Below are positions 5,804 to 55,947 of a stretch of 64,000 nt of DNA, piece after piece. This DNA is from Moniliella sp. 'wahieum'. Taxonomy: Eukaryota. The DNA lies in NCBI GenBank assembly GCA_003971905.1, contig RSEE01000058.1, forward strand, positions 124,001 to 188,000, read 5' to 3'. Within the stretch, counting starts at the first letter, position 1, and every line of letters starts with the position of its first letter. A program made the position numbers and the translations under genes. Under the pieces are notes generated by a model. It was not told where the DNA came from. It saw only the letters and a list, made by a program, of their open reading frames with translations, and searched no databases.

Positions 5804-5898
5804 TGCTTCAAAGGGGAATCGAACCCCTGTCACATCGATGTCATACGGAGGCTGGCAGTGCTTGGCAACGATGTAGTATACCACTAACCCATTGAAGC
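5804..5898 (-). tRNA. tRNA-Gly(GCC) with 24-nt intron
   Basis: Acceptor stem GCTTCAA/TTGAAGC+A; anticodon arm CATCG-TTGCCA[intron]T-CGATG; T-arm AGGGG-TTCGATT-CCCCT; followed by a T6 Pol III terminator. Confidence 0.95.
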
Positions 5899-7489
5899 TT
5901 GTGTCATTCTTTTGAATGCATCAGTTTTGCACATGCGTGCATACGTACAAATTATCTTGTTAGCTCTATAAAGCTCACACCCCCAAAGCCGACACTCAGT
6001 CTAGATCACAACGCTCAAGCTCAACCCTCTCATTCTCCGTCAAACGTGATGATCAAGATCAATATATGCCCCTCTGTGGTCATCCCGCCATTTCTCAGCA
6101 GGGCTTACATTCACAGTTTCTTCAATCGGCATGATCCACTGCCACTGCCTTTCTTGCTTTCCTCCTCAGGTAGTCTATGTGGTTGTATGTCGTCGTTCCT
6201 CGCCTTTCGGCGGCTTCTTAATACCCATCTGTCGCCTCTTCAATTTATAACCCTTCTCCTCCATCGCACTTTTTGCAACTCTACACAATCTCTAGAATTA
6301 CCAACAATGTCACCCCCTGTTGCTCCTCTCGTGTCCCATCAGCTCACGTCTTGTGCTTCTCTATGATTTCTCGTTTTCTTTAACAGAGTAAACACATTCA
6401 TCGCATTAGCGCACGTCATAAAGAAAAGAAGAACGATGACAAGTTCTTGACATTGAGTGGTCTCCTTCTTCTCATCACCCTTCCCCTCCTTCAATTTCAC
6501 GGGCCAGGGGGGAGATAAGTCTACCACTGACAGCACAAACCGGGGCTCACATCGGCGCTGAAGCGCTGAAGTCTCATCAACACTTGAGACCCCCTCCGTG
6601 AGCAGAAAGCACAGATGGCATGCAGTGGATGCAATGAGAGAAGGGGGAGAATCGGTGTGCAAATACAATAAGCACCCCGAACGCACCCAGAACGAGCACA
6701 GGATGATGTAGCGAACTACGGCACGTCTGTGACGGGGTGGCTGGCTTCCCAGGCGGAGACCTTCCCTGCCCATCGGAGACAAGACTCACGGAGGACTGAA
6801 CGCGTTTCAGATCCAAAGTCCAAGGCTCATTGGCGTGAACGTAGGAGGGTCGAGAGTGATGCTTTGCTGTGCGTCGAGCAAAGCCTGAGCAGCGGTCTGC
6901 GAGCAGAGGTTGCGTGTGTAGGGACTGGACGCGAAAGCGGGGAGCTCCGATATGGGCGAGGGAGGGCGAGCGAGCTGATCGAAAGGTGTTCCTTCTAGAA
7001 GTGGAGTGCCTAGAAGAAGGGTGAAGGGGAAAGAATGGTCAGCGGCTTCGGCCATCATCTCATTGGATCGAAGAACAAGCCGGTTTTATAGAAGAGAAGG
7101 GGAACAAGGGAAGACCAAGAGATCTACAACAGTGTAAAAGGGGAAACGAGTTAAAGGGAAGAAAGGGGACCAAGCGCGAGAGGGACGAGAGGAGGAGAGG
7201 AGACGAGGGTCAAGAGCAAACAGTGAACCCGAGGTGAGAAACGAGACGAGAAACCGAGTGGAAAACAACTGTGTGGTGTTTTGGATTTTAGACGAGGGCG
7301 AGCGGAGAAACGATGATTGTTGTGGGTTTTGTAGATAGAAAGAGGTCCGAGTCACGATAGGGGAAGAAGCCGAGAAGCGACAGCGACGATAAAGAAGTGG
7401 AGGCGGCTGTGCAAGGCAGCTCAGTCGTCGCCGCGTGACAACGTCCATCCACGGAACGTCTTCATGGGACCTCTGTCGCCGCTGCCCTA

Positions 7490-9400
7490 TGACTCCTTTT
7501 GCTTGATGCCAGTAAAAGGAGGGTGTTTGGACCGCAAAAAACAGGTACACTACGGACGTCCAAAACGTTCCACATTCGACATTTGGTGATTGGCCTGTTT
7601 GTAACCCGCGTTTAGTGCATTGCATGGAAAATGTATACACGGTATGGGGCGTGGCTTTCATTTCTCTAATAATGTTACAGAGTCGCTCTGTTGTCCCAGT
7701 TGTGTGTTAAGGTGAAGGTTATACGGAAAGATTATGTGGTTTGTAACTAGGGTCCATCTAATATATGTCCCACGGAAGGATTACCGCTTGGAGAGAAGCC
7801 TATGGTGTCGGAGTGTTTTCTATATGATCATAACGAGAGGGCACACCGTTCACAGTCCAGTCCTAGATTGGCGCCCACAAATTCTTCTCTACACTTTCTT
7901 CCCTCTGGTGTGATTGAAGTTCCACACCACCTTCTCCACCACCACATTCGACCTGTTGGCTATAAGTTTAGTGTGTGTACACAGAAGGCTGGCCATTAGC
8001 GGGAAACGCAAAAGTGTGTACTTACGTGGCATATGTACTGTGTGAAGAGGTTGGGAAAAGCATCAAACATGACACGATAATAGTGTCAAAGTCATATCTT
8101 ATGCTAGGGGGCTCCCTTCGCCCGGTATAGGCCTGTGTCGGTTCACAATAACCTACTAGGAAACGAGAGTGACAGTGTATACGCAACACGGAACTGACTG
8201 TGGAGAAGCGCGAGAGAGACCTGTTTTTTTATTCATATCATTTACACAGCTTAAGCCTGGGACAAAGAAACGCCGAGTCTATCAAGGTTCACTCACCCGG
8301 CGTGTGCTGCTTGTGTTCATTCCAATCCACAATTAGGAGTCAGTGGAGAAGAGTCGCTATAGCAGGCCGAAATCCTGTGACTGCCAATCCGGATGTATGT
8401 GTAGAGTCATGAATGCGAATGTGTGTGGTCTATATATGTGTGCGATGATCTATTATGAAGCTTGAAGTTAGATGGCTTGAGGCAGCTTCAGTGAGACTCC
8501 TCTATGTAAATCAAGGCTTCTCCAGCACTCAAGCGTGTTCTTTTTGTTGACCGTCTTGGTATGGCAGTACCCCGGGCGTGGTCAGACCAGGGGAAGAATG
8601 ACTCTCCTCTTCTTAAGCGCTTTCATGTGGGTCTTCACATTCCGCTTGTTCCAACAGTAGATGCACACACTCATTCTCGCTGTGTTCCGCAGACGTTTTG
8701 CGGTTGCCTTGTGTATACCACCTTCCGTCGGTACGCAGCAGCCATATATGCATGACCTCCTTCTTTGAAACCGATGAATCCCTCTCAAAGCGTGTGGTCC
8801 ACATCCATTCCGGATCCTCCAAACGCCCCTGGTCCCATCATGTACAACTCACAGTGGTCTTGTGCGGACGGGCTCCGGCGCCCAAGAGATTCCTCCCGGG
8901 TTCCGTTCCCAGTCCGGCGCGTTCCGCTTTCTCTTCTTTGTTGCGCTGCACCAGCACAATTAAAGTCTATAGTACGGTGGGTATTCCGGCCTTCCTCACA
9001 CGCTGCGTCTTGTCCTTTCTCCTTTTCCCTCTACAGCTGCGGCACGCTGAGAACGCGTGTGGGTATCCCGGACGGATCGCAGGAGCTACTGGAGGATATG
9101 GTCCGTCACACATTACCCTCGCGGAACGCACGAAGAATTGGATTGAGGGGGGTGCTAATGCGATAATGCCAAGATGTGCTCAATCGATAGCATCGATAAC
9201 ATCAGACCACACTTGCACTTGCTGCGCGAAGAACGGCACGGAGGGTATACGCTGGCGTACGACGGAGCTGGGTGGAGAGGCCAATCTGAATCAGGTTTTC
9301 CCTTGTCGGTGATGGGCTGGCTTGTGGCACTTGATGGCTGCTGTGGCATTGAAGAGGAAAGACAATGGTAGTTGAACCTATTGCCGCTCAACAACCGTAT
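7490..9400 (+). mobile_element. Decayed Ty1/copia pol (integrase C-terminus/SH3, RT, start of RNase H)
   Basis: Ordered degenerate motifs: TPF...DVQNVPHSTFG (7490-7590); WHMYCVKR (~8025-8050); KSYL/ARGLPSPGIG (8089-8132, ~KARLVARGFxQxPGID); LDGLRQ (8468-8485, ~LYGLKQ); PSHITLAERTKNWIEG (~9103-9150, ~HxxAAKRILRYLKG); GGYTLAYDGA-GW (~9240-9275). Confidence 0.6.
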
Positions 9401-9549
9401 TGCGACCATCCGCCTAGTACAAACGGTTATACATGCCGTTCTTAGGAGGCCGTTATTTAATGACAAGGTATCGGCAGTGCGGTAACGCCTGAGGATGTCA
9501 TCTATTGCATCGTGTCTTCTGATGTCATCGTCAGACACTCTGCGTTGCA

Positions 9550-12200
9550 AGTTACATGTTACACGTCAGCGGTACACGTCACACGTCCCATGTCCCATCC
9601 CAGAATGTCACACGCACTGTCTGGGTCCGGTGGGAAAGATGAATGATGCATGATGCCATTGTATCCAACAGGCAACTGGAGTGGCTACTGCGTCGGCTGT
9701 TGACGCGTTGACGCGTTGACGTTTGAAATTTGACGCGTGACGCCCTTGACGCTCTGTGCCGATGGGTGTGGCTGAGGAAGCCAGGGTCGTCAGGGACACG
9801 AGTGCCGGTCTGCGCCGGCGTACCGCGACCACTGATTATCGATTATCGATGACCCGGGTGCCATGTGAGCATGTGAGCGCTGAGCATGTGAGCGTGCCTG
9901 TACGCAGGACTTGCCAGGAGAAACGAGCGAGCCGCGCTGAGGTGGCGCAGCGCGCTCAACCTGGGCAGCGCCCAGGCTCGGAGTGTTGGTTCAGTACGTT
10001 GGACGTTGAACTTGGGCCGGCTTGAGCACGTTGAACACGTTGATGCGTTGAACGTTACACAGTTAGTGGTGCGTTGGCGTTGAACACGTTGAACGTGATA
10101 CGTTTGATATATGATAGCTAGTACGTGCTGGTCTGTCTTCCGACGGGATATCCGATACTCGATCTCAACAGAGCTCTACGTCAATAACGCTCAGCGCTTA
10201 CAGCTCGATCTGGGATTTAGACGTTAAACCCATCCCAGATCTCAACGATCTCAATTCTCTCTCAACCCACCGTAGCTTGAAGCTTGAAGCTTGAAGCTTG
10301 AAGCTTGAAGCTTGACCAGTGCCGACTTGACGCGTGACGCGTGACGCGCGACGTGAGACGGCGTGACAACGTGACAGCATAACGGCGTGATCGGTGATCG
10401 GTCGATGACCAGTGCCGTTGGCCAGGAACGACGGCAAGCATACCGCACACCTCGAACTTTCGCGTGTGCGCCATGTTTCGTTCTTATTTTGCCGGGCAAC
10501 ACGGTGAACTAGGCAGCCAGGATGTGCCAGTGCAGGCCAGCGCCTGAGGCTTGAAGCCTCGCCAAATGTGGAATCTGGGTAGGGTGTGCGTCTGGTGCCG
10601 GATGGTGGATGGCGTTTGGCGTTTCTCAGCCGCTCAGCGTCACGCGTTACCGGCTCAGCTTAACCAAATTAATCAATGGCGGATACAGGTGGTCACCGGT
10701 CAGAGGTTAAATATCGATCTATCGACGAGATATTCGTTGAACGTTGAACGTTGAATGTGGAACGTGGAACTAATTAGTTCGATGCAGCGCGCGTGGCCCT
10801 GTGGGGGCTACGCCGTGCTACGCCCCCGGCGCCACATGCCCAATCTGGATAGTAACTAGTAACTAGGTAACTAGTAACCGGTACAGTAGCGGGTCAGCGG
10901 CTGAGCTTGAGGCTCATGCACTCATGAGCGCAGCGTGCAAGCAGGTGCAAGCGCCAAGCCGAAACAGACCCGGGCGGATGCTGCGCGCTGGAATCTGGAT
11001 TCGAATGTGAGTGAGATGGTGACATCTAAGACCAAGGTCTGACATATCACTGTGACATGTGCCGCTCTAGACGCTCCAAGCCGAACCTGCCGCCCCCGTT
11101 CACCGGTCACCCGCTCACGCGTTGAGCTGCTCACGCTCACGGCTGAACGTTCAGCGTTCAGCTGTTCAGCGACCAGCGACCAGTGCCGCATTGCATGATG
11201 CATGATAGATGGTGCATGGTGCATGCATCATGCATCATGTGTGACACCACGCCGTTGTGTATTCCTAAGTTGGGACCTGCGACAGGTAAAGCTGTAAAGC
11301 TTGCAAAGCTTGAAGGGTGGTTACCTTACCCGTTGGGCCGATGATCGAGATGATCGATGATCGATGACTGGGAGCCTAGCATCTAGCAACTCGCATACCA
11401 CATTGTCCCATGCCACCAGGCTACCAAGGTTACCCGCGTCACATGTCACAGGCCGTGAAGGGTATCACGCTCGTACACACTTTCGCACACTCCCTCACTG
11501 CGTTTGAACTGGCATGGCCACGACACTCTCGCGCCCTTTGCCCGGCTGGCGAATGCATTCCCACACTGCGACACTGCTCTCCACCTGTCACATGTTATGT
11601 CCCACTCAGTACTCACATGCACACGTCATCCGTCCCATATTCCCGGTTCCCTGTACAGGTCACTGCTTAGTGCTTAGTGCTTAGTACTTAGTACTAGTCA
11701 CTTGTTACTAGAGTGGTCACTGGGTCACCGGTCACCGGTCACTCCGGTCTCTGGCCGCCGCTGCTGCCGCTCGCCCCAAGCTCAAGCTTCAAGTCCGGTC
11801 ACCGGTCACTCGTCACGCGTCACGGTCTCCGTTTGCTTCTCAGGATCTCAGATCTCTCAGATCTGAGATTCGAGAGCACACGCTCCATCGCAGCGTGGTG
11901 GGGCAGGCTGACACGCAGCCGAGGGCAATGCGGGGACCGCAACGTTCCTGGCTGGCGGCTGCTGCCTGCTGCGGGCTCCCCGCCCCCCCCGGGCAGGGTT
12001 CAGTGTTCGGCTTGCCGAGCGAGGCCGCAGGCACCAGGCAAGCATCATGCACCCGCGTCAGGTATCCGTGCATCAGCCACAACGCACCCGGGCAGCCGAA
12101 CCCATGCGCGCACTGGGCTACTGCGCCTGCCGGCCGCCTGTGGATTGCCGCGCATGTGCTTTGTCCGTGCATGATGCATGATGCATGTCAGCCGCTCAGC
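9550..12200. repeat. Dense block of 7-bp-period palindromic micro-repeats, (TNA + 4-bp palindrome)n
   Basis: (AGCTTGA)6 at 10274-10315; TGACGCG ~10328-10347; TGAACGT ~10738-10755; TAACTAG ~10853-10878; TGATGCA/TCATGCA ~11192-11240; TGATCGA ~11342-11367; TTAGTGC/TTAGTAC ~11667-11697; TCACCGG ~11725-11742; TCAGATC ~11843-11869. Confidence 0.9.
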
Positions 12201-12408
12201 GCTCGGGCTGAGCCTCACGCTCCCGCATCGCCCGCCCGCAGTGCGCTCCAGTGCCCCTCAAGCCGCGCCCTGCCCTGCCTTTTCCCATCCTGCCGCGCTT
12301 CCCACGGGGCTCAGCCAGGCCAGGCCCAGGCCCAGCTGCCAGCTTAACCACCGCTGCGCCTCGCTCCCTCTTGTCGTGCCCACCGCCACCTCCCCCGCTG
12401 CTGCTGCC

Positions 12409-13134
12409 ATGGTTGCCACCTCCCACTCCGCCCCACACGCCCTTCCCTCCGGCCGCCTCACCCACCCCACCTCTGCCTCCGCCTCCGCCTCTGCCTCCAG
12501 CTCCTCGGCTCGTGTGCGCAGCTCCACCACCACCGCCGCCTCCGTGCCCCTTCTGGCACCTGTCCCCCGTCGGGCCTCCTTCATCCACCGCCCCAAGCTC
12601 ATGCGTTCCCATGCCGTCTCCGCCGCCTCCAGGCCCACCACCCCGTGCACCCAACTGGCTGCCTCGCTCCAGAATGTGAGCTTGCACGCCCCCCTCCCGG
12701 CTCCACCGGTCGTACGCCCATCGGCGCCCCTTCGCCCACTGCCCCCCCGCCGCCGTCGTTGGAATCCGCTTCGCTTCCTTCGTTTGTGATTGACTGCGAT
12801 GCCCACGGATCTAGCCCCACCCCGGACGCCGAGTCATCGTTCCAGCCCTGTGGTCTGCCTGTCCCCTACCTGCCTTCACCCATCCCAACTCCCGCTCTCC
12901 CGTTCTTTCCCCCCCGCTCATACCTACCTGTACCATCAGCGCTTGTCTACCCCCACTGCCACGCCCCCTGCCAAGGACGCTCCTCCCCGCTCCCCCATTC
13001 CTCGCTCCTGCACACGAAACCCATTGGCAGCAGCCTTTTCCGCTCCACGGTCCACCACGCCTGTTCCTGGCCAAGTACTGGGCTTGGAACTGGGCTGCCC
13101 TGCCCCCTGGGCCCACCTCGACGTACGTGCTTGA
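12409..13134 (+). CDS. Hypothetical Pro/Ser/Ala-rich protein (frameshifted)
   Basis: GCCATGG start, GC-rich coding-like stretch carried over three overlapping ORFs (12178-12789, 12645-13469, 12790-13134). No recognisable domain. Confidence 0.4.
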
Positions 13135-14185: not shown

Positions 14186-15211
14186 ATGGCTACCTACCTC
14201 GCCAGCATCTACGGCACGGAGCAGGACCGCGCCAACTGCTCTTTCCACCAGAAGATCGTGCTTGCCGCCATGGGGCGCGGTGTGGGCGCAAACACATTCG
14301 TCCGCTCTTTAGCCCTACGGTGCTCATCTCCAACGCATACCGCAACCCGCGTTACGCCACCACCTTTCCCCAGGGCGGCCCGGCGAGTGGCAAAGACCTT
14401 CAGGAACGCTTCGACCAGTTCTATGCCGATTGGTATGTTGAGCTCTCCAAGTACGGACGCTTACTCGAGCTACACGTTTGCGACAATGTCGAGGACCATC
14501 TGTTGGGCAATTTGTATGCCCGTTTTGAGTGGGAAGACGAGGCGCAGCACGCTTTGGAGGCCATCAATGGTCGCTGGTACGATGGTACGTTCTATGCTTC
14601 AGACTCTTTTTTGTGTCCTGTGGTTTCTGTTGTGTTGTGTTCTGGTTCAGGGGTGGGAGAGCAACAGGTACTAACCGATTTTTTGCTTTGGTCGGTCTAG
14701 GTCGTCCCATCTTTGCCGAACTGTCTCCGGTAACTGACTTTCGCGAGGCGTGTTGTCGGTCGTACGAGATGGGCAACTGCTCGCGCGCTCGCCAGTGCAA
14801 CTTTCTTCACTTGATGCGCCCTTCGGCGGGGGTGGAACGGACGCTGCGAATGGAAGCGGCGCGCGCAAGAGGCGTACGAGCGACAGAAGGACGATGCGCG
14901 GTTGGACCAGGCGTTGCGCACAGCTGCGTCGCCGTCGCCTCGCAAGCACGAGCAAGACACTTCTTCCGCCACAGCATCGGCTCCACTCGGATGGAAAGAA
15001 CGGATCGAACGCTTGTCTGGCCCACGGCAAGCGAAGAACCGGACCAGCCGTTTGCCCCGTTACCCCAAGACGCACTGTGGCGCCAAGGTCCTTCTGGCGG
15101 CGACTGGCGCCGCCCGTGTCCGCGTCCGCGCTGTCAGCGCCTACACCTGCGCCTGCGCCTGCGCCTTCTTCTGCCTCTCCACTGCCGCTGCCCCCGTTGC
15201 TGCGTCGGTAG
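14186..15211 (+). CDS. U2AF1: Splicing factor U2AF small subunit (U2AF1/U2AF23)
   Basis: MATYLASIYGTEQDRANCSF..KI(G)ACRHGARC..KH zinc finger 1; UHM with VCDNVEDHLLGNLYARF; intron 14585-14700; AELSPVTDFREACCR.YE..C...CNFLH zinc finger 2. One-base deletion near 14257; 3' end uncertain. Confidence 0.93.
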
Positions 15212-16237
15212 CATGATGCGTTGGTTGTTGACATTGGATTGGAATTGAATCGTGGCGAGAGAGGCTGCTTGGAATGTGGGGGGAGTTAACGATGAGGGAA
15301 AGCAAGGGCGCAGCAGGAGGAGGTTCAGGTGCAGGACGTAGTAGAACAGTTGGTGGAACGACTGGTGGAATAGCTGTCCGATAGCGTTTTGAGAAGCGGT
15401 CTTGGTATTCCTTGGTTAGACCTCAGTCGGACTGGTTCCCATAGTCTACCGGTTGTGCATGTATTGCACGACTGCTGCTCCCATCGGATGACCCCTCCGT
15501 CACTGGGTTTCCTTGGATCCTGAAGAATGGAATGGGATGGGCCGGTTCCGTCTGATATGATTAGATTTCGACATGTATGCCCTCAGGTTCTCTTCCCTAG
15601 TCTTGAATGAGAGGGGAAGGAGAGGGAGGGCAGCGCTGAGGCCGCGCTGAGGCGAACATGAAGTTCTTGTTCGTCGATGAGAGCGTTGGGCTCCCGTCAG
15701 CTGCCTTCGCGGACCACACAATCTGAGTCGTGTGGCTTTTTTCGCATACTCAGCTGGGTTGCCTTTCTTGACTTAATTGTCTTCGCTCTTGGTCGAGTTC
15801 AGAGCCGGCCGAGGGGGAGGGGGACCTAGCCAAGTTTGATGGGCTTCTTATCCTCTCGCTTTATCCTGAGATGGACTGGCAGAAACGTCCACAGGAGGAG
15901 CTATAGGTCTGTCCCTTGCGACTTCTACAATCGTTTCTCGGCCCGCTCTCCCGCTTCCCAAAACCACCACCCCAAAGATGTGTCTCGAAAACGTGTAGAA
16001 TCTGCACTAGGATTATGATTAAACACTAGATGATTAAAAACTACAATTGACAAAGCGACAAAGCTTCTCTATACAGGATCTACTGTTGCGGACATACAGG
16101 TAGATGCATATCGAAGGGAGAGAAACGAAACTGTGCGATATACAATCGTAAGACGTCCCACCGCTTTGGCGGGGGGGGGTGCAACAAACAAAGCACCTAG
16201 CCTCACAGCCACACAGAGGGCGCCAGTAAGAATCCGC

Positions 16238-18186
<1,949 letters not shown>

Positions 18187-18875
18187 GAGGGAGAAAAGAC
18201 GAGGAGGGTGGGGGGAAAGAGAGCAGCGGGAAAGAGGCGAGAGGATAGGCTTTAAAAGCAGGCTGGGTCCGTCCGTTCACATGGCGCCTGAGGTCGGTTG
18301 ACTGGCGCAGTTCGACACGTGTGGCTGAGCCTAGTTGCCTGAGCGCCGAGACCCACAGCGTACGGTCCTGGGCCACCGGCCACCCTCGGCGCACACATGG
18401 CAGAAGCCGAGGGAGGAGGGGGAGGGTACAGTGCTCCGGACTCAGCCAGTCTGCCCCACAGCCACATGCTCCGCTGCCCCCGTGCGGTACACGCCTGCCG
18501 CCTGGCCGCCTGGTATAACCTCTGCCCCGTTGGAGGGGCCCGTGCACGCTCCGTCGCCCCACCCCACTGCGCAACACTGGCGCTGCGCCCGTGTGTATTT
18601 CTACTGCTTTACCCGCACTGCGGCCACCCACGTCAGGCGGACGTACGCGGCGTACGGCGTAAGGCTACCCGCTAACCCCGGCAGGCGCTGACCAACGCTG
18701 ACCAATCCGCCCGCCCACGTCAGCGTCACCCCACCTTAACCCCGCTGCGCCTCTTGCACCGGTCTGTCACGTGCCGGCGCTTGCACCGATCCCATCACGT
18801 GCTGCCAGTTGCACCGATACGCCCCTCCCCTCTCTCGCTGCCTTGACCTTCGCCCTTCGCTCCCCCGCGCCACCG

Positions 18876-20496
18876 ATGGGCACAAGCGAGGCGCACGTGT
18901 ACCGCGACGTGTGCGCGCGCTGCGGGCGGCGGCCCACTGGCGCCCCGAACACGCCAAGTCGCTCGCCCGCCTCTTCCGCACCCACTTCCGCGCCCACCTC
19001 CACCAGCACCCCGCCCTCCCCCCCCGCCTGGCACCACACCCCTCCTCTTATCGCCAGCGCCCCCACAGCCCGCGCGCCTCCGCGCCGACATGGACGCCTG
19101 GCGCGCCGTCGCCCAGCCGCTCCTCGCCGCCGCGCCGACGCCATCGTCGCACGCGGCAAGTCCCAGTCCCAGCTCGCTGCCGTGCGCGACGCCCAGGCCG
19201 CCCGCGCCGCGTCGCTCGCCTCCCAGGGCCAGCTCGAGCTGCAGGAAACAGGCCAAGAGGCTCTTCGCCCAGGCCCAGCGCAAGGCCGGCGCTGCGGCCC
19301 TCGTCCAGATGGGCGTGCGCGATGCTGCGCGCGCCCCCTCCCGGGCGAGGTGGACAAACTGGTGCAACGCGCCATCCAACTCAATGACCGTGCCAGTGGT
19401 TTGGCCCGCTCCGCCAACCTGCGCACCCGCAAGAGCGTGCGCGTGCGCTGCGCTTGGCCCAGGCGCGCTTGGGCAACTCGGACCCTGTTCCGTCCGAGCA
19501 GATGGTGGGATTGGCGTCCTATGCCAGCGCCAAGCAGCCGCCCCCGACCTGCCGGCCAACATGGACATGGACGTGGACGCGGATGCTACGCCGCCCCCGG
19601 CGCCCGGGGTCAAAACGCTGGCTCACCAGGTCGTCGAGACCCTGTCGGCCCTTACGTACCGTTACCTATCGCAGACCACGCTCTTGTCCCGAAGCGAGGC
19701 GGCGGGACGGACTTGACGCAAGTTCCGTCTTTCGGTCGCACCACCTTGGCGTGATGAAAGAAGACCGCGCCTTGCTTGGCGATGGGGAGGGGGATGATAT
19801 GGAAACGTTCATTTCAGACGAGATGGCGTGGACGAAACGATGCGACAACACTTACCGATGTTGGTGGTACCGGCACGTATGTACGTGGGTCCTGCGCGGG
19901 ACTCGCGTGCTATTCCCACCGCACGGGGACCTCGACCGATTCGGACGTGGGACGGGCAAAAGTGAGGGCACCCGCTCCGTTGCCTTCGCCGCGACAAACT
20001 GGCTCAAGAGCGTGCCAAAGTCGACCGGGTGGCGCGCACGTTGGCCCAACGTGCCTTTTTGTTCCGCGAAGCCAAACCATATCGTCAAAGCGCGGGCGAA
20101 GTGGAGCGTGGCCTCCACGAAACGGCCTCCGGACTAGCATGGGACGACAGAGGTCCGTTGAGTGGGAACGACCTCAATTGGACTGGCGCGCGCTCGGGTG
20201 GGATGCCGCACGTCGGACACAAGAAGAAAACCAAGATTCGTTCAGAGCTCTTGGCCTTATCCCCGATCCGCCTCCAACACGAACGTGACCAGTTGGAAAA
20301 CGAGTATCATCAAGTGCGTCGGGTCCATAGCCGACTCGTTGGCTCGTTCCAAGGCAGGTCCTTCCTCGCTGCGGTTACCAGGAGCCCAAATCGGCCTTGC
20401 TCGGCTTGCTGCGCGATGAGCGGGAGAGGGAATGGGCTGGTGTTGGGCTCCGAGCGGTTTGCGCGTGTGTTTGCCGACCAACCGGTGGAGCCTTAG
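18876..20496 (+). CDS. Hypothetical protein, possibly prenyltransferase alpha-repeat (PTAR1/Ecm9-like)
   Basis: GC-rich coding-like region broken over several frames. Segments such as LRTRKS..CAW.RR and FISDEMAWTKRCDNTYRCWWYRH loosely resemble PPTA repeats; weak. Confidence 0.3.
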
Positions 20497-20668
20497 CGCT
20501 TCAGCGGCCAAGGGGGTAGGTATATAATAGGCCCGCCAAAATGTACTTACCCGCCGTTCTTCTATGTTTGGCCGACACCAACTCCCTCCCCCCCTCCCCC
20601 AACTCCAAACTCTATATTCATATCCATCGACCATTTGTCCTACACACCCTTACCAGACCCAGATACAA

Positions 20669-22873
20669 TTACAGGCACAGCGTGGCCCTGCCCGGCCTCT
20701 TCCTTACTCTTTGGTTGGAGCGGAACGCCAACAAGCACTCGAGCTCCGATACGGGACACGCCAATTAACAAAGTCGTGGTGCAGCATTGTTGGGCCGTAG
20801 CGCGGAACTTAACATTGACACAGAGGCAGACGGTCAAAAAACTTTTCAGTTCGTGCGACCAGGCTTCCGGGCTTGAGGGTCGGAGTGCCATTGGTAGCAA
20901 TCAAGTAGAGCGCCTTGAGCGGTTCTTCGTCCAAGTACGGCGGTTTCCGATTCCAGCAGTTCGATCAGCAGAATGCCCAAACTCCATATGTCCACTTTTT
21001 CCCATACTCCTCTTGCTTGACCACCTCGGGCGCCATCCAGTATGGCGTGCCGACCAACGTGGCCCGCTTGGATCGTTGGTCGGTCAGTTGGGCACAGAAC
21101 CCAAAGTCGGTGATTTTGACGTGGCCCCGATTGAGGAGGATGTTGTCGGACTTGATGTCGCGGTGGTGGATGATGGAGTGGGCATGGAGGTGCTGCAATC
21201 CTTTGCACGTCTCGCCCAAGATGGCGGCGATCTGGGGCTGTGAGGGTATTGTGATCAATCACTTCGGTCAAGGCCACCTTCCATGTACTCCATAATCACC
21301 CACACCTCCGTCTCCTTTTTGACCAAGAACGAACCGAGGAAATTGACCAGGTTCGGGTGCTGGGTCTGCTGCAGAACCAGAATCTCATTGACAAGCAACT
21401 TTTCGCGGCTGATGCGCCAACTCCATCGTCTTGATTGCTACCCGTTCCCCCGTAGCCAACCTCCTGCCACATACACCGACCCACTCGCTCCTTGCCCCAC
21501 CTTTTTGATCTTGGAATACAGCGTCGCAGGGTCTTGCCCCGACACGACCGTCCGCAGCTTAGCAACTAGTTGCGCGTCCGTCATGATATTCCTCCGCTTC
21601 TCCCTGGCCTGCCCGCTTCTTTCCCAGACCTGCCGCCGCACGCGGCTGGGGCGAAGCTGGGGCGGCAAGCTTGGGAGACGGAGCCGGACGGGGATGGGAG
21701 TGGGGATCAGGATGGGGGGGATGGGGATGAGCTTGAGGTTGTGGTTGTGGTTGAGGCTTGGACCGAGAGGGCGCCCCCCTAGCCAGCGCATATGTCGACG
21801 CAGACCCAGACCCAGACACAGACGTAGATGTAGACGCAGACGCAGATGAAGATGCAGATGCCGACCTTGCCGCTGGCGCGGCTTGCGTCCGGACGAAAGG
21901 GAAGCAGCGGCCTTGTTAGCCAACTGCGCATCCTGGGTCGTGCCCCTCGCGAACCAATGACGGGAGACGGCGTCCTGTTTATGGACCGGGGGTTGAGGGG
22001 CAGGACGTAGTCCCTGGGTAGGCACGGCTTGAAGGGCGTCTGGGCCGCTGGGCTTTCGTACCGGAGCGCGTGCCTATAGCCACGGTGCTAGTGGCTGCGG
22101 GTCGGGTTGTTTGGGGCACCACGACACGGGGGTTGGGGGAGGCAGGAGCGATGGGATGGCCCAAGCGCGTGTTGGTCGCGGGTTGAAGGCGAGTGTAAAA
22201 CTCGAGCACGTCCAAGACGGCCTGGGGGTTTTTGACATAATCTTCCTTGGTGATGGCCGAGGTGGTGAGCAGCCGGGTCCATTGTTCGGCAGGCCAGTGA
22301 ATCCGCCTGTGACCGGATCAAAGCCGACGTGCACTTGGTGCTGGAACCCCGTTGGCGCCGACACGCCCAGCTTGGGCGCCCGACTGTAAATCTCGTCCAT
22401 CCAACTGTACAGTTCGAAATCGGATTTGAATTGGACCCAGTACGATTTGCCCTTGGCCTCGAGCGAGGCAGTAGGGCTTGACATCGGACCGCGCCACCGA
22501 GGTTAGGTCTTGCAAAAACAACACAGCCACGGTTGGTATGTCGTTCGTCTTGTGCAGCGTCAACGTCTGTTCCCGCAGCGCCATCCACCGCTTGCTCCAC
22601 ATCCACGACCGCAGCCCGTCCTCCTTGACGGACACGTACCCGGACCGCACCACGGCGGTCGCGTCGAGCGCGGCCGAGGCGGCGGCAGAGCTCAGTCCAT
22701 ACGCACCGATGCCGGCGGGGGGTGCCGGCAATGGGCCGCAGCGGGCCCGTGAAGGGCAGACGGACTGGAGGCTTTTTGACGACGGATGAACCGGCGGCGC
22801 TGGGAGCGGGGGGCGGGGCGGGAGGAGTGAGGGAGCGGGCGAAGGGGTCGGGGGGCGTCGCAACGTAGCTCAT
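20669..22873 (-). CDS. CLA4: PAK-family Ser/Thr kinase with PH and CRIB domains (Cla4/Skm1)
   Basis: PH domain [51 protein letters not shown]; kinase [52 protein letters not shown]. Frameshifted. Confidence 0.93.
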
Positions 22874-46158: not shown

Positions 46159-46919
46159 GTTGCAGCGGCGGGGGGGGGGGGGCGCACACGACCAGGGCCA
46201 AGGGAGCGGACGCGGCGGAGGGGATGGAGGGGTGGGGTGGTGGGGGTGCCGGCGCGACGGGAAGGGACGGACGCAGGTGTGCGTGCCTGGAGCGAGGCGC
46301 AGTGGCTAGTGGCTAGTGACTGGGTGAGCTAGGCGTGGGATGCATGAATGCGGTGCGCTGCCTGCCTGCGTGGGCGCATGCCACGTGCCAGCCGCACGAA
46401 GCGCCCGCACAGCGCCAGTGTGCCGCGTGCGATCGGCGGCCCGGCCGGTGGGCCTGCGGTGGACACGCGTAGGGTTGCGGTGCGCACACTGCCCGCGTGC
46501 CGCCGCCCGCCGCCCGGCCGCCGCGGTGGAGCACGCCGGAGCACGCCACGCCCGCTGGTGCGCCCTGGTGCGCACACGCGCCTGGTGGGTGCTGCGGGTG
46601 TGCGCTGGGATGCGCTGCGCCCCCTGGCCGGCGCCCTCTGCAACAGTGGGCTCGTGTGGCCAGGGTCCGCTGCGTGTCTGCTGTGGCTCTGGCCTGCACT
46701 GGCCTGCACTGGCACGCTCCGCCACGCGCTGGCTCAGCACTGCTCCTCAGCCGCCCCCTTGCGCAGACGCGCACGCCCAGCATCACGTCCATCCTCCATC
46801 CTCCATCCGCCCTCCTCCCGCCTCCACTCTCCTCCTCCACCCGCTCCGACTCTCATCCCCTCCCCTCCCACCTTCCCCAGTATGCAGTGCCTCCTTTTCT
46901 CTGTGTCAGCTCGCCATCC

Positions 46920-47392
46920 GTCGTTTTAGCGTTCAGCGTGTTCAACCTTGAAGCTTCAAGTTCAACTTGAACGTCAACGTCAATGTCGTCAACGCGTCAA
47001 CCCGCAACTGGAACGTCACCGGCTAGTCATTAGTATACTCATTTCTAAGCTCCGCTCCCCCCCTTTTTTCTGATAGCGGCGTAACGCGTATTACGCGTAA
47101 ACGCGTAAGCGAGATAAGCGCACCGCGTTCAACCCAAACGCGCTACGCGTTACGCGTTCCAAGCCCCCCCCCACTTGCCACTGGCCACTGGCCAAGCATC
47201 ATGCATCATGCCACTGCATCAGCACATCAGCGCATCCTCCTGCACCTCTCTCGCCCTAATCCACAACCTGGCAAATTCGCATCTCTTGGCTGCCACCGCC
47301 ACCCCATCTACCCCACACGCGTCTGCATAACGTCGTCCAACCTTACCGGTTAGGCCCGTCGATCATCGACCGTCACGCGTCACGCGTCACCT
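46920..47392. repeat. Cluster of TNA-N4 heptamer palindromic repeats
   Basis: TTGAAGCTTCAAGTTCAACTTGAACGTCAACGTCAA; GTAACGCGTATTACGCGTAAACGCGTAA; CATCATGCATCATG; GTCACGCGTCACGCGTCAC. Confidence 0.85.
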
Positions 47393-47650
47393 GCACTGCA
47401 GACGGACGCCCCCCCTCCATCCGATCCCCACACATCACCATCAGCTCGAGCGGCCGAAACCTACTCTGATCTACATGTATCGACATCACATCACGAATTG
47501 TGATGTGATGCCACCAGAATCCGGGAGTCCTGCTGGAATCTCTGTTGAGAGTTGCGGTACATGCCACACATACACTGTGTGCAAAAGCACAATCCTTAAT
47601 CTTCTGTAAGGTTACCCACCCCTCCTCTTCCTATCTTGCTTTTGCATGCA

Positions 47651-47737
47651 TCCTCGATGGTCCAACGGCTATGATGTGACGCTCTCACTGCACCTGCAGC
47701 AACCGTCAAGACCCGGGTTCGACTCCCGGTCGGGGAA
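47651..47737 (+). tRNA. tRNA-Glu(CTC) with 15-nt intron
   Basis: Acceptor stem TCCTCGA/TCGGGGA+A; anticodon arm TGACG-CTCTCA[intron]C-CGTCA; T-arm CCGGG-TTCGACT-CCCGG; T5 run just downstream. Confidence 0.95.
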
Positions 47738-48449
47738 TCTTTTTGGATATGGGACGCCTTAACCTTCGTTCGTGAGCGCATAGACCATCCACAAAGCTCT
47801 CATTGCCTTTGGCCAAGCCGTCATTCGCGTCATTCATCTTTTTTCCTTGGCAAAAAAAGTGTGCTCATTGCACTCCAAAAGAAGCATCATTTTGGGTAAA
47901 CGAAGGTGGCGTCAATGTAATTGCGCTTCTTGCCAACACTGGCAATTAAAAGTCCGCCACGGTCGCTTCCTACCGAAAACAAAACATCTGCCTTTGATCT
48001 GTGGTATCCGTATCGTCCGGCCTCGCTGGGGGCGCGAAGATGAGAACGGAGAACTGGGGAGAAACGATAGACGAAAAGTACGCTGTGTGTTGGTGCCCCA
48101 CAGAATACACGTGATATACTACTACCTCTCTTCGGTGCCATCCAATTGCCATGGGAGAGACTTTCATCGGCTCCCACTTCGGATAAACACACCTACATAC
48201 TGGCCTCGGCGCCTCAGCTTGAGACCTGAGGAGGGATTGAAGGGACGTTGACCAAAGCGCAGAAGCCACCCACAGTGGCTCGGTGCTACTCAGCGCGCAA
48301 CGCTCTCTCAACGTTCACCTAAGCCTCAGCGAACAACTTTGAGGCTCAGCACCGGGCACCCCTCTATCATATTGCACTTGTTCGGCACATCCTCCCCCCC
48401 CACACACACTAAGCCACAAGCGATCTACTGCCCCTTCCACCTTGCCCTC

Positions 48450-49250
48450 TCGTTGTAAGTACAACTCACGTGTTGCTGAAAAAGGAGTACATCATGCCAT
48501 GGTCTACCTCCCGCGTTACCTCTATTCTTTTTCCACAGACGGCTCTGAGAGCATGGGCGTGGTCGCCAGGTAGAGAACCCACACATTGAAGCTTTTGGAT
48601 CGGTTCCCGTACGACCTTGTGCAACGCGCGCGCCACCCGCTCGGATCGGTTTTTGGGTGGCGGATAATCCAAGCGCCAAACTACCACACACGAAGAATTC
48701 CAAGACATAAGATGTGGCCTCAATCGCATAATATCGCAAACTGTATATATACTGGCCCAGGAGTCAAAGGCGGCAGTTGCACGACTTGGACGCAGGAATG
48801 AAGATAAGGTTGCAATCCTTGGAAGATCTGAAAAGAGTATGTAGGCAACCTGTCGTAGTTAGGCTGATCGATCTGAGAGATTTGATCTGATCTCGCGCCA
48901 AGCATTTCCAATTTCTTCGTCCCGAACGTCTCTCGCACTTTCCCTGTCTTTGCTCCGCTTCGCACCATGTCCTCTGCTCTTGCCTCTTCCCCCACGAACG
49001 ATTGCTACATACCTGCACCTGGCCTTGACTATGGTCTCCTTGCCCTTAGCGCCGACTTGTGACAATCAAAGCCCTTCTTCGTCATTCTCTGTTGCATCTT
49101 GCCGTTGTCGCAGATCATGTAGTCGTTGCGACCAGTGCCAGTGGTGGCCACGTAAAAAGGGTTTTCACCGATAAAGATTGAACTTCAACGTTCCAATTCA
49201 AACTAACAGCGGATGCGTGTGGGGCATCTGAGCTCTAGAGCCCTGCACGG
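48450..49250 (-). mobile_element. Decayed Ty1/copia integrase core
   Basis: FGTKKLEMLGARSDQ (~GKKIKxLRSDN), YPPPKNRSERVARALHKVVR (~PQQNGxAERxNRTLxExVR) and LPGDHAHALRAV (~LPxxxWAEAV), in the expected order. Confidence 0.55.
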
Positions 49251-49559
49251 CCAGCACCCATTGCAGTCAGAAAAATTACGCCACGGACGGGTAGGGTGGC
49301 CACTACGGCCTACGAGAAGACAGAGTGTGCGGTGGTGAGCAACAGCACGAGAGTAACTGAGTACTGGGTACTGATGTGGTATACCTTCTACCGAGTGCTA
49401 CTGGGGCTGATGCACTGGCGCATGATGGTACCGTGGTTCGCTGCTGTAGTGATGGGGGTGGATGGAGATTGTGGGTGCTCATGGCGCTCATGCACTCATG
49501 GTGCATGACTAACACAACTCATCGTTTTGGATGTGTTTCGCGTTGCCGCGCAGGTGTTG

Positions 49560-50190
49560 GACAATGTTGACGCGTTGACGACGTTTGCCACAGTTTGCCA
49601 CAATAAGGCCAACGTTGAACGTTGAACGTTGAGTTGAATGTTGACCCACAACGGTTACCGGGTACCGGTTATCAGCTTGAAGCTTTAAGCTTTCCTATTA
49701 CTTCCAGTTACCGCGGTTATATACTCTCGGCCAGGGGTCGTTAATCATGCAGATCATGTGAATCAACCCGAGTTAAGTAACTACTATGGCATAACATGTA
49801 ACAACTACTACCGTTGCATCCGGGTAGAACTGAAGCTCAGGCTGACTACAGTGGCAGCTTGACTAATAGAACGGATTCACGAGATGCAATGGTCTCCTGG
49901 GAACTTGAAGATCTCTCCTGAGCGCCTGTGTCATGTACCATGGGATATGGACCTCGTGCCCATGTCATGCCGCCGGCCACAGGGAATTGCGCCCTACTAC
50001 TACATCATCATATAGGCGCAGCCACAACAGCAGCGCCGCACCCGAAGAGAAGAGAGTGTCCAACACCGCCCGCGAGGCCTCAGGCACAGCAGGGGCAAAC
50101 AGCGAGTCGCACAGCAGCACACACGCCTTCTGCCTAACCCACGAGGATCGGGGGGGAACTGAATACTGAAGCTTGAAGCGCGATTAAGCT
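49560..50190. repeat. Cluster of TNA-N4 heptamer palindromic repeats
   Basis: TTGACGCGTTGAC; AACGTTGAACGTTGAACGTTGA; TTACCGGGTACCGGTTATCAGCTTGAAGCTTTAAGCTT; CTGAAGCTCAG; CTGAAGCTTGAAGC. Confidence 0.8.
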
Positions 50191-50592
50191 AACCCACAAC
50201 AAGCCCTGCCGCAGCAGCTGGAAGCATAACAAGTAGATGGACAAACTACACACTGTGTGCTCTTCGGCTCTCTGTGGTGCTGGTAGCAGCTATACCACTG
50301 GGATCACTTTCATTCTCGCGGTCCCACATGTCACAGCTCCATAACCCCTCTTTTCACCAATTCCGTCTCTCGCCACCTCCCCTCCTCTCCCTCCTCTCCT
50401 CTCCTCCTCCATCTCTTGTTGCCATCAATAGTCCTCCAGCTCCCTCTGTTGTTGGTGCTCACGACACTCCCCTCACCGGCTTCACCCATCCATCCTCGCC
50501 CTCTCCGTCTGCCAGTACACACCATTGGCTTATGCAGTTGAACACACGTCTCCCCCCAGTGCTCTGCTTCGCCGCCCCATACTCCTCACGCC

Positions 50593-51539: not shown

Positions 51540-54188
51540 ATGTATGCGCATGCCTTTATGCCTCTTCTCTCTATCCCCTTTCTCTCTTTCATTATATGGG
51601 ATGAGACCACCGGACCTACGGCCCGGTCAGCTGGGGCTTCGCCCCAGCTTGGTGCTGCGTCGCCACCGTCGCCACCCTTCCCCCAAGAATAATGTCACGA
51701 ACGCTGGTGTAGGTGCGCAAAAAGGGATTGCAGCATATATGCCGGGGGATGTTCTTGATGGACGCCGGGATTGATGTATTGAGTGATTGAGCCAGAGTAG
51801 TTGTTGGGCCACATTTGAGCGGCTTGTGGGCTTCGGGAACCATGAGCCAGAGCTGCGCATAGCGAGGTCCATTCTGTTGTTCCGGCGGTGCGGGTTCCGG
51901 GTTGCGTTCATGGTACGTGACAGGATAAATTAAGGGGTCCAACTGCAGTATAAGTAGTGCCATGAAGGAGACCAATGAATACACTTCCCAACAGCATTTG
52001 CCAAGCGATGGCCATATTTGGCAATCCATGAGGTGAGAAAGGCCATCAACGTTCCATTGTACATATACGCATTTTGGACAACTGTTCTGTGGCTCGAGAC
52101 GGAAGCCGTCACGGATGCGTCCAAAAAGTTTTGGACAGGGGGGGCATGGCTTAAGATTGGGAATGTTCACCTTGCCTACATACTGAGCGTTAGAAGAGCA
52201 GGGCAAACAAGAGGAAGATGAACACACCTTGGCTGGAGCATATAGAGAGAAAAGTGAGGATTGATTGGGACGAATTATGGACATGTTCTTCTGCAAACAT
52301 GTAAGCGTTGGAGTAACTGCATATATATGATCTCTCCCAATGACAACTTCAGCGTGTTGTCTGTAGTTCTCACGCACATTACTAGGACCAAACACATCGC
52401 CCTCGACCCAGGCTGGATTATTGGCGGCCACACCGACAAAGGCATGACGGCCCGGGGCAACAACAGAATCCATGGTCATTTTGGAGCCACAATTGGGATA
52501 GTGTCTCCCTCATGTTAGAGGGTACTGCTAGGGTTCTCCTGCGCGGCCCTCAATGGATCGGTGACGCTCGCCTAGCCGAGCGGAAGCGTTCCGCTCGCAG
52601 GCCGCGCACGCCTGCTCGCTTCATCTCCCTTCTCTCTCTCCTTTCTCCTTCCCTTCAGACGTTGCTTGAAGACTTGTGGCTCACCACTTTGCCTTCACGC
52701 CTTGTCTGAAGGCTGCTTTGCAGCTGATCCTAGGATCGCGAGTGCTCCCAAGTCGCACTCTAGCACCTCAGAGAGAGACCTGGACCCTGCTCACGCGTAG
52801 CTAGTCATTGTATAGCCGAGTTGGCTTGCCCTCTGGACCTTTCCTCGAGAGACGCCTGGGACTTCTGCTCATAGTTAGTCAGTGTATAGCCGAGCTGACC
52901 TGCCCTCTGGTGCCTGTGCTTCTAGCCGAGCCGGTCTGCTCTCTGGTGCTTCCCTCAGAGACTCCTGCAGTCTTTCCTCATGCGTGGTTTGAACAGGTCG
53001 GTTTAGGCGTAGCTTTTCCCTGTCCCAGCCTTAAGCTCTGTGAATGATATGGATGCAGTATGGAGATGTGGCTGTATTGATACAAACTCCTTCCGACGTC
53101 TGAGGATAATTCAATCCCATCTCTTTCCCCTTTGCCAAATGAAGCCATCTGGCATACTATACCGGTTTGTCCAACAACAGGGTTTGATTCTTGCCCTCCT
53201 TTTTCTCCTTGGATCGATGAGGGACAGGTCAGAAGAGGGAGGGAATGATCCAAACATACATGAGAGAGCGACGAGTCAATGACAGAGGGTGTGCGGATGG
53301 TGCACGGTAGGATGCTCGATCAAGTACCGTGCCGACTGAGGTGGCGCAACAGCGGTGACGCCACCAGCGAACCGTATCCAACGGCGAAGGGAGCTGAACA
53401 TCGGGCAATGAGACCGTCACCGCCCCCGGCCTTGCCGCCGGTTAAGGTCCTGGTCCTGGTCCTGGTCCTGGTTCTGGTTCCGGCCCCGGCTCCCCCACAG
53501 TACCTAACATCGAGGCCGTCCCCCCGCGATTCACTCCACTCACCCACCTCGCCACCGCCTCATTCGCCCCCCTCTTCACCGGGCCCCAGGCAGCTTGGGC
53601 TTTGAGTCCTTCCCCCGCCCCCCCCCGGCTGGAAAGAGTTGAAGTGAATGAGATACGCCTGTAGCTGCCAGAAAGGTGGCAGCAGGGCCCAACGAAAGTA
53701 CCGTGGCCGACATGATGCAAGAGCCCTTGACCGTGCTTCCCAACGGGACGACACGGACTTCTTCGCTCCGCCTTCTCCACCTGGAGACGTCCCTCTGGCG
53801 CGGTAATACTGCACTCACAACATCATCATATGCCAGTGGATGAGGTCGTTCTGTCCTCTTCGCCATCACCTCTCCTTCCCCCTTCCCCTTCTTCTCGCTC
53901 GCCTCGTTGCTTGATTATTACTCGCTGGTCGTCTGTGGTTTAGAGACTAGGTGTCTGCAGGTCAGAGCCTTCACGCGTCCTTACAATTCCCTGGCATATT
54001 TCAGTCACTAGTCGCAGCCGCCTGTTTTGGCCTTGGAGCCAGCCAGTACCGCTGAGCCAAGAGCTCACCCGCTGAACCACTTACTCCTGACTCTGTGACG
54101 CTTGAAGACCTGATTAATGGGATTCCAATCGCTACCCGTGGTCTACCTTGGGCTCCACCGCCGCTACTTTCCTCGTGTTAGAGCCAAC
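51540..54188 (-). mobile_element. Decayed Ty1/copia element (LTR-like end, protease, integrase, SH3)
   Basis: VIDSSLSHVCLDHSL at ~53240-53283 (~WIIDSGASxHMC). The 287-aa ORF 51616-52479 has NPAWVEGDVFGP (~PLELVHSDVxGP), HERNPEPAPPEQQNG (~HExTxPxTPEQNG), LNTSIP..IKNIP and IILGGRVA (~LRVFGCxA); KGMRIH at ~51540 (~KGYRIY). TGTTGG on the minus strand at 54188 is a candidate LTR start. Confidence 0.65.
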
Positions 54189-54259
54189 ACACAGTTTTGT
54201 TGTCTCCTCCGTTCCCTCCCCCAAGTCATTATATTGTCGGCATAGCAACGCGCGCCTGC

Positions 54260-55448
54260 TCAAAAGTTCTTGATGATCGCGTCGGTGAATTGCTGCGTGG
54301 TGGCTGTGCCGCCCATGTCGGGCGTGCCAATGCGGTTCTCCGAGATGACCTTGTACAGCGAGTTGGCAATCGAGTTGGCCTGGGCGTTGAGACCAAGGTG
54401 GCGCAGCATCATCGTCGACGAAAGCAGCATCGCCGTCGGGTTGGCCTTGCCTGTGCCCTCAATGTCCTTGGCCACGTGCCGGCAGCCCGGCTCGTACAGC
54501 GCGTATTCCCGCCCAATGTTGGCGCCTGGGATCACACCGGGCCCGCCTACCAGCGCAGCACCAATGTTGGAAACAATGTTGCCGTACAAGTTGGGGGTGA
54601 CGACCACGTCAAACTGCTGCGGGTTGCTGACCAGCTGCATGGACGTGTTGTCGACAATCATCGCGTTGTGCGTAATGCCAGCATGGGTGTACTCCTTGGC
54701 CACGTCGTTAAAGGTACGGAGGAAGAGACCGTCACCGAGCTTCATAATGTTGGCCTTGTGCACGCACGTCACCTTTTTGCGGCCGTTGCGCACAGCAAAG
54801 TCAAATGCGAAGCGGGCAATGCGCTCCGCCTTGGCGCGCGTCGAGACCTTGAGCGACTCGACGACACCAGGGTAGGACTGGTGCTCGAGCCCCGAGTACT
54901 CGCCCTCGGTGTTCTCGCGAATAATGACAAAGTCCACGTTGGGGTGGCGCGTGGGGTGGCCGGGCAGGGTCTTGCAAATGACCATGGAGGCGTAAATGTC
55001 GAGCTGCTGGCGCATGGCCACGTTCCACGAGTTGTGGCTGCCGGCCTCGATGGGGGTGTAGAAGATGCCTGGGATGGGGGTTAGTACGGCAGGGGCAGGC
55101 GGTGCAGTGCAGGGGGGAGGAGCGTACCCTTGAGGCCGACCTTGTTGCGCTGGAGCGACTGCATGGCATCCTGGAACAGGGCCTCGCTGCCGTGGGTCTC
55201 GCCGAGACGTCGAACTCCTCCCACTCGACGGGGACGTTGATGGACTCGAAGACCTGCTTGACCGAGTGGGTGACCTCCTTGCCGATGCCGTCGCCGGGGC
55301 AGAGGGTGACGACGGACACGCCGCCGTACTTCTTGGGGAGGGCGGCGACGTCGTCGAGGCTGAGGGTGGACATGGCGCGGGCCGCGAGGCGCGGGGCGGG
55401 GGCGGCGCGGAGGGCGCGGGCAAGACCGAGGCTGCGCGGGAGGGCCAT
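54260..55448 (-). CDS. IDH1: Mitochondrial NAD-dependent isocitrate dehydrogenase, regulatory subunit 1
   Basis: PKKYGGVSVVTLCPGDGIGKE; GLK|GIFYTP (intron 55127-55069); [53 protein letters not shown]. Confidence 0.95.
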
Positions 55449-55947
55449 GGCGGGGGGCGGGGTGGAGGGAGGGGAGGAGAAGCGCCGTGCGGGTGTTTTG
55501 ATTTGTTTTTGGGATTGGATTTGGCCAGGCGTCGTGGGTGGGCTGCTGGCTCTGCTGGCTGGGCTGCGTCGTCGGGCTGGGCCGGGAAGAAGCGGGGGAC
55601 GCCTGCATCGAACTCTCAGTGCGGGCGAGCGCAGCAGGCAGGGCGCCAGTGTTGGCTGGCCTGCCAGGAGACAACCCTAGCGCTGTGTGCATGCTGGCGG
55701 TGCTCCCCGCGTGGAGTGCAGCGCTGGCGCCGTGCGGACGCTGGGGTCAGTGTGTGCATCTAAGCAGCATGCCTGCCGTCTGCTGGCCAGCCGCCTGTTT
55801 GTAACCCCCCGACGCAACCCATTTCAATCCAGCCCACGCCAGCCCAGCCCAGCCACCACCCACGCCCAAGGCCAGCCACAGCCCCACTCTGCCCGCTTCT
55901 TACTCTCTTCTTCCTGCTGCTGCCCCCACCACCCCCCGCCTAGCCCC
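55449..55947. promoter_or_regulatory. Putative bidirectional promoter of IDH1 and IDH2
   Basis: About 500 bp between divergent start codons at 55448 (minus) and 55948 (plus). Confidence 0.6.

Follow-up and report, generated by a model that had tools for sequence, protein, structure and literature searches.

A 2.6-kb non-coding block of TNA-palindrome heptamers in a smut-related basidiomycete, probably built of transposon excision footprints

The stretch of DNA analysed here (64 kb, hereafter the window) contains a block of short tandem runs that share a 7-bp period and a T-N-A anchor, with a 4-bp spacer that changes from run to run. Ordinary microsatellites amplify one unit; here the rule is conserved and the unit is not, and the question that this locus raises is what process writes such a rule. 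The original prediction offered two readings: a multimerised binding platform for a protein, or the footprint of a hairpin process. Among the 120 matches listed, the best named relatives of the IDH1 gene of the window belong to Tilletiaria (82%), Ceraceosorus (80%), and Tilletiopsis and Moesziomyces (78%), indicating that the host is a smut-related basidiomycete.

The number of TNA-N4-TNA units in the block (9550-12200) was 55, compared to 5.7 ± 2.6 in 500 dinucleotide shuffles. Palindromic spacers were present in 39 of them (71%), compared to 0.4 ± 0.6 in the shuffles (maximum 3); the heptamer pattern is therefore real, and the self-complementary spacers are a majority rather than the near totality that had been claimed. 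The control cores ANT, CNG and GNC remained at background in the same count (1, 2 and 2 units). The N4 spacing is enriched as predicted, but so is TNA-N5-TNA (26 versus 5.5 in the shuffles). A scan not assuming TNA (3-base core plus 2 inverted bases) also placed period 7 far above the other periods (62 versus 0.5 in the block), and TNA emerged as the core in 72 of its 114 window-wide matches. The block contains 32 exact period-7 runs, 18 of which obey the TNA/palindrome rule; window-wide, 39 of 90 such runs are self-complementary, 34 of these 39 with a T-N-A core, and self-complementary units are absent at periods 8 and 9 (0/32 and 0/22, respectively). Thirteen palindromic spacer types were found: the 11 named in the original prediction (AGCT, CGCG, ACGT, CTAG, TGCA, TCGA, GTAC, CCGG, GATC, GCGC, CATG), and AATT and TATA, once each. 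AT-only spacers were depleted (2 versus 9.2 expected) and GGCC was absent (0 versus 3.2 expected). The two anchors of a unit have the same middle base (N) in 58 of 73 units and complementary ones in only 5, meaning that the announced flips into 10-bp palindromes exist (11857-11866) and are rare.

Palindrome centres located 2 nt from a TNA reach 0.52 per TNA site in the block and 0.126 in genes. The edges of the block are sharp: a 250-bp bin holds 6-12 centres inside it and 0-2 immediately beyond. The neighbouring 7090-9549 does not rise above background (0.098 centres per TNA), and the limits originally given to the block were right (Table 1). The excess of palindrome centres (91, versus about 22 at the genic rate) corresponds to roughly 70 events, and the block would hold about 60-90 in all. 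The density edges hold, but the pattern is less local than had been thought: units recur in two further dense patches (Table 1) and singly upstream of other genes. A few runs of 7-mers lacking the T-N-A core (e.g. a CCA-C-TGG unit) were also observed beside a dense patch, at 47177-47194 and 46301-46318.

Table 1 Coordinates of the block, its setting, individual sites and further patches (positions of the window; ab and cd, flanking bases of the target ab-TNA-cd).
Feature	Coordinates	Strand	Remark
Host intergenic stretch, 5.3 kb, non-coding	7090..12409	.	Both flanking genes called by hand; probably a divergent promoter region
Non-coding block dense in putative scars	9556..12185	.	91 palindrome centres 2 nt from a TNA
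8-bp-period variant (TNA-N5-TNA)	9699..9721	.	Both flank overhangs can build the spacer
Longest pure array, 6 copies of one 7-mer	10274..10315	.	Folds back with a single mismatch in each unit (hairpin, z -6.3); slippage probably lengthened the array
Minimal one-sided putative scar, mirror type: TNA-cd, inverted cd, TNA-cd	11100..11111	.	
Mixed array, target GT-TCA-GC	11144..11171	.	Long inverted tract (flipped N), plain 7-bp duplication, 8-bp variant
Minimal one-sided putative scar: ab-TNA, inverted ab, ab-TNA	11604..11615	.	5-bp direct repeat + 2 inverted nt
Array on target GC-TTA-GT	11664..11695	.	Two plain 7-bp duplications (spacer cd+ab), then P-type unit
14-bp perfect palindrome	11855..11868	.	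Encloses the 10-bp flip; read as a full-length (7-nt) P tract
Second dense patch of TNA-palindrome units	46850..47450	.	22 centres per 40 TNA
Third dense patch of TNA-palindrome units	49100..50300	.	30 centres per 73 TNA

The origin of the spacer was sought in its flanks. For each run, the bases to the left and right of TNA-spacer-TNA that continue the 7-bp period were counted, the expectation being at least 4 matched bases in total for duplication of a whole unit, about 0 for a free motif, and 2 on one side for a flank-templated unit. Fewer than 4 matched bases were found in 29 of the 47 runs (short runs), the remaining 18 having at least 4, and 25 of the 29 short runs match at least 2 bases on one side, compared to 12% under the motif model. 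The spacer is copied from the adjoining bases: a unit consists of a direct repeat of 5 bp to which 2 inverted bases are added, and the two halves of a spacer, being inverse copies of each other, make it palindromic. The longer flank match peaks at exactly 2 bases (18 of 39 single-spacer units), the one-sided events are balanced (18 of left type and 18 of right type), and the non-templating flank is mixed in composition; templating and non-templating flanks did not differ significantly in AT bias (2 versus 8 of 36; p 0.085). These flanks give no support to the idea that the pattern began as a binding platform, with TNA-N4-TNA selected as the site of a general regulatory factor, origin or boundary protein, because the motif model leaves the flanks random and predicts no adjacent repeats, yet most of the short runs are templated.

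The same runs bear on ordinary microsatellite growth, i.e. hairpin-assisted slippage amplifying any near-palindromic 7-mer. A three-class mixture model over the 47 runs, without a mutation term, gave weights of 0.61 for footprints, 0.29 for slippage and 0.10 for free motifs, with a log-likelihood loss of 41 units when the footprint class was removed and of 10 units when the slippage class was removed. Slippage is favoured by this weight, by the 18 runs with at least 4 matched flank bases, and by the folding of the arrays as hairpins (2 of 4 tested with z below -3.8), which may aid secondary slippage in the long arrays. As the origin of the pattern it is disfavoured, and we consider it highly improbable: the short runs match fewer bases than a 7-bp duplication needs, in simulated slippage 2-3 of the short runs were templated and 8 types of spacer arose (versus 11 and 12 observed), and both the T-N-A core and the missing self-complementary units at periods 8 and 9 are left unexplained. 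Slippage stands as a secondary process.

The geometry of the units is stereotyped. Even palindromes are centred at TNA+2 in 130 of 348 strand-sites, compared to 19-33 at four other offsets, and odd-centred palindromes (14-26 of 348 at five offsets) do not exceed background. Half-units (TNA plus palindrome, the second TNA missing) were found 52 times versus 16 ± 3.9 expected, with no excess for the other three cores. Among the non-palindromic spacers with the same N, 3 of 8 are exactly cd+ab, that is, plain duplications of ab-TNA-cd, and plain 7-bp duplications occur in the same phase at 11151, 11667 and 11674; the coexistence of plain and P-type units on the GC-TTA-GT target (Table 1) allows the 7-bp phase to be assigned with no recourse to a palindrome. 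Pieces of flank overhang account for 35/40 N4, 7/16 N5 and 3/10 N6 spacers (4.8, 0.4 and 0.1, respectively, with permuted flanks), leaving 9/16 N5 and 7/10 N6 spacers unaccounted for.

We infer that a cut-and-paste DNA transposon left the units behind as healed, RAG/Transib-type footprints of its excision from a 7-bp target duplication; we regard this reading as likely. The geometry of the product is observed directly, and the transposon, the hairpin and the host nuclease would be the agents behind it. The element would insert into 7-bp targets ab-T-N-A-cd, duplicating them, and at excision the transposase would seal each flank as a blunt hairpin, as RAG and Transib do. By known chemistry, an Artemis/Pso2-like host nuclease would then open each hairpin 2 nt 3' of its tip, leaving the overhang c-d-d'-c' on the left end and a right-end top strand that starts exactly at T-N-A, the bottom strand being the mirror image. 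Joining of these ends would give ab-TNA-[cd d'c']-TNA-cd or ab-TNA-[b'a' ab]-TNA-cd, the two products seen in the sequence. Such a joint would always add 7 bp, repeat N and carry a palindromic spacer dictated by the local flank; the 3-base anchor would be 7 minus 2 x 2, the period would be the length of the target site duplication (TSD), and the spacer would be palindromic by construction. A repeated visit would add the same spacer through the cohesive overhangs, since the new TNA sits in a self-complementary 7-mer, and the array would grow; a hit on the other TNA could add a different spacer, and slippage may later lengthen some arrays.

The marks of a flank-hairpin footprint are present in the block: remnants of the target duplication on both sides (the repeated N and the plain 7-bp duplications), inserted bases inverse to the flank (in the short runs and the N4 spacers), and an even palindrome at a fixed distance (TNA+2). 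A forward simulation of these events (90 events, 4-fold re-hit weight, 20% decay) reproduced all nine statistics within about 1.3 SD, under settings that were hand-chosen (six in all). Without the re-hit weight the simulation overshoots the short runs (25 versus 12), and the slippage-only and motif-only simulations miss several of the nine statistics. From the two readings first offered, the footprint of a hairpin process is thus the one favoured, in the form of a 7-bp target duplication with P nucleotides, and the binding platform as origin is not.

The transposon is deduced from its products: no credible pair of terminal inverted repeats with a 7-bp duplication was present in the 64-kb window, where repeat finding also showed none, and no transposase family was found among 102 of the 217 stop-to-stop open reading frames of at least 125 aa in the window, nor among 111 shorter ones in seven intergenic regions. 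Other features also count against excision footprints: to leave one event every 30-45 bp, the local traffic of elements would have to be extreme, with the 2.5 kb next to the block at background, and the depletion of AT-only spacers and the absence of GGCC lie outside the predictions of the model. So uniform a product is also unusual for excision, since fungal footprints are heterogeneous and V(D)J joints mostly lose their P nucleotides.

The same product could be made without a transposon, by a host or domesticated nuclease or by a template switch of the replication fork at T-N-A, two bases of the opposite strand being copied before re-entry 5 nt back. This explanation fits the same geometry, needs no element (none was seen in the window), and copes more easily with the density of the units and with the uniform outcome. 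We nevertheless judge it unlikely: microhomology re-entry would be equally good or better at CNG, GNC and ANT, cores which are not enriched; polymerase fold-back with a zero-base loop is impossible, and a cutting enzyme alone would presumably give no 7-bp duplication; the plain duplications in the same phase are what a TSD produces. Two further schemes were rejected. If only the 3-bp TNA were duplicated, with simple P nucleotides, no direct copy of cd could come ahead of its inverse, and fold-back at the centre of the spacer predicts a flipped N, found in just 5 of the 73 units.

The proposed excision chemistry has described counterparts. Hairpin opening at +2 with 4-nt 3' overhangs is reported as the dominant Artemis product, and most V(D)J joints as losing P nucleotides (PMC2175297); flank hairpins are described for hAT, Transib, MULE and RAG (PMC5499845). 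The block shares with RAG coding joints and Transib excision, as these sources describe them, a flank-templated even-centred palindrome in which the 2-nt P arm (4-nt overhang) is dominant and longer arms are rarer (PMC2175297, PMC5499845). Unlike in RAG and Transib, the P tract of the block is enclosed by a 7-bp target duplication whose core is T-N-A, and the outcome is near uniform (+7 bp), accumulates in an inherited genome and iterates to tandem arrays, and the enzyme is putative.

The hAT elements show a partial likeness. Footprints of Ac/Ds in plants and yeasts are described as TSD remnants with short P insertions from flank hairpins, those in fungi being varied (28 types in 128 Candida revertants; PMC5873905), and 7-bp TSDs are reported in basidiomycetes for hAT7, in rust fungi, and for Kyakuja (PMC12730594). 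The likeness thus extends to TSD remnants, P insertions and, for hAT7, the TSD length (PMC5873905, PMC12730594). The hAT palindromes are described as odd-centred, formed by the complement of the base beside the element, whereas in the block the even ones are enriched and the odd ones are at background; a hAT (Ac/Ds)-type 8-bp target with odd hairpins was rejected, as it predicts a complemented N and odd centres, the former found in only 5/73 units and the latter at background.

A Tc1/mariner footprint consists of TSD, short spacer and TSD, and the spacer can be palindromic, is fixed and comes from the element ends. In contrast, the 13 spacer types of the block follow the flank, which rules out a Tc1-type footprint with a fixed spacer. 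By the features tested, the footprint is thus neither of hAT nor of Tc1 type.

Blunt hairpins are plausible for EnSpm/CACTA elements, because the CMCT clade to which they belong is described as including Transib and RAG1 (PMC12730594, PMC12810828). The difference lies in the duplication: the CMCT elements described have TSDs of 2-5 bp (PMC12730594), with TA for CNEST and 3 bp for CNIRT6 (PMC12810828), compared to the 7 bp deduced here, and the element and reading-frame searches found no such element in the window; CA..TG termini and a Tnp2-type DDE transposase would be its marks. Kyakuja elements (KDZ) of Agaricomycotina, as described, have the 7-bp TSD in common with the block (PMC12730594), and no KDZ domain was found among the 102 long and 111 short reading frames searched in the window. 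In Ustilago maydis, '10-bp repeats' have been suggested to be transposable element footprints (PMC4081816); the likeness is one of description, in that they too are numerous, very small and intergenic, belong to a smut and have been interpreted as remnants of past transposition. Both components, P nucleotides and basidiomycete TSDs of 7 bp, are already known, and no description of iterated +7 TNA footprints, of their uniformity, density and iteration, was found in the literature searched, mostly surveyed at record level. A more specific proposal, which we put forward tentatively and hold to be doubtful, is that the footprint regenerates itself and comes from an undescribed RAG/Transib-like (EnSpm-related) lineage whose 7-bp duplication is centred on T-N-A; its excision would make a palindromic target with cohesive ends, and its repeated visits would have written the many-unit tandem repeats, about a fifth of some promoter regions, and so provided palindromic transcription-factor sites not present before, possibly of use to the host.

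The distribution of the units brings back the binding platform. None of 54 units lies in the 35.8 kb of hand-mapped genes, and on the hand-drawn gene map 34 clusters occupy divergent regions (15.5 kb), 6 tandem regions and 1 a convergent region (4.9 kb), 40 of the 41 being upstream of a start codon. This avoidance of genes and preference for divergent regions would suit a platform, as would the eight ACGCGT sites within the block, a motif that we take to be MCB. Most of the promoter bias comes from the block itself, with 23 of the 34 clusters; once the two dense regions are set aside, 6 clusters in 5.8 kb versus 1 in 4.9 kb remain. Transposon insertion can prefer open promoter DNA, and such a preference would yield an equal bias; retention of the units after insertion would also fit. 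Compared with a homotypic transcription-factor cluster, the block has the location upstream of genes and does not have a fixed motif independent of the flanks. Together with the templated flanks, this makes a platform selected for TNA-N4-TNA very unlikely in our estimation. Later regulatory co-option of the scars may nevertheless be a candidate role, since the clusters sit on the promoter side.

The total absence of units from genes also argues against an amplification or assembly artefact by ab initio synthesis of palindromic repeats. The assembly does have many frameshifting errors, but the units are short, set in unique sequence, copy the local flanks and decay, and we consider an artefact extremely improbable. 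The frameshifts are numerous in the conserved genes of 14187-22873, one of which is presumably U2AF1-like, and in other genes (including the flavoprotein and PAK kinase genes), as fits an error-prone long-read assembly.

In the window, which is eukaryotic, Pfam marks were obtained for RNase H2C, Rps26, a flavoprotein with a cytochrome b5 domain, a PAK kinase, an exonuclease, a proteasome subunit, ADH, an ABC transporter, Rpc34, two IDH subunits, a TPR protein and a complex I subunit; a homologue search with the open reading frame to the right of the block found none. The genes of the two NAD-isocitrate dehydrogenase subunits lie head to head with a gap of about 500 bp (54260-57095). Two tRNA-like genes, both missed by ARAGORN, were spotted by eye at ~5808-5900 (-) and ~47650-47740 (+); we take the first to be Gly-like with an intron and the second to be an Asp-like 3' half. 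Two possible solo-LTR-like stretches (~52500-53050 and 53900-54200), with TG...CA ends and a purine tract nearby, adjoin a 287-aa reading frame (51616-52479) that has a weak zinc-finger match; the domain search found no retroelement domain near them or in this reading frame.

Beyond the window, a metagenome scan with one three-unit array matched at least 123 loci, and the multi-spacer pattern was present in none of the loci among the matches listed; other palindromic units numbered no more than 4 in any one of these loci and were mainly AT-only, in DNA rich in AT. A separate search for look-alikes of the block found none. In several loci (L073, L071, L070, L060 and L050-L052, ~35% GC) a single heptamer, T-S-A followed by CGCG or in places TGCG, recurs in several scattered runs, not all in the same orientation; unlike the pattern of the block, this is a single-unit repeat. 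In L010-L011, 24-26 TCA-CGCG units crowd into 10 kb, where they form part of longer repeated blocks. In a prophage-like bacterial region (L046:960-9360) the intergenic gaps carry inverted pairs of non-palindromic heptamer tandem arrays of many different kinds, arrays which appear to us to resemble bacterial short tandem heptamer repeats.

If the footprint reading is true, the chemistry of the transposase is written into the genome by the arrays, in which the scars would reveal the TSD length (7), the target motif (NN-TNA-NN), the blunt hairpin and the +2 opening even after the element has been lost. Tandem repeats with many different units could then arise from footprints and not from slippage, and the old idea that the tiny repeats of smut genomes are transposon footprints would become testable. 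Because the palindromes sit upstream of genes, the scars would also be raw material for new regulatory sites.
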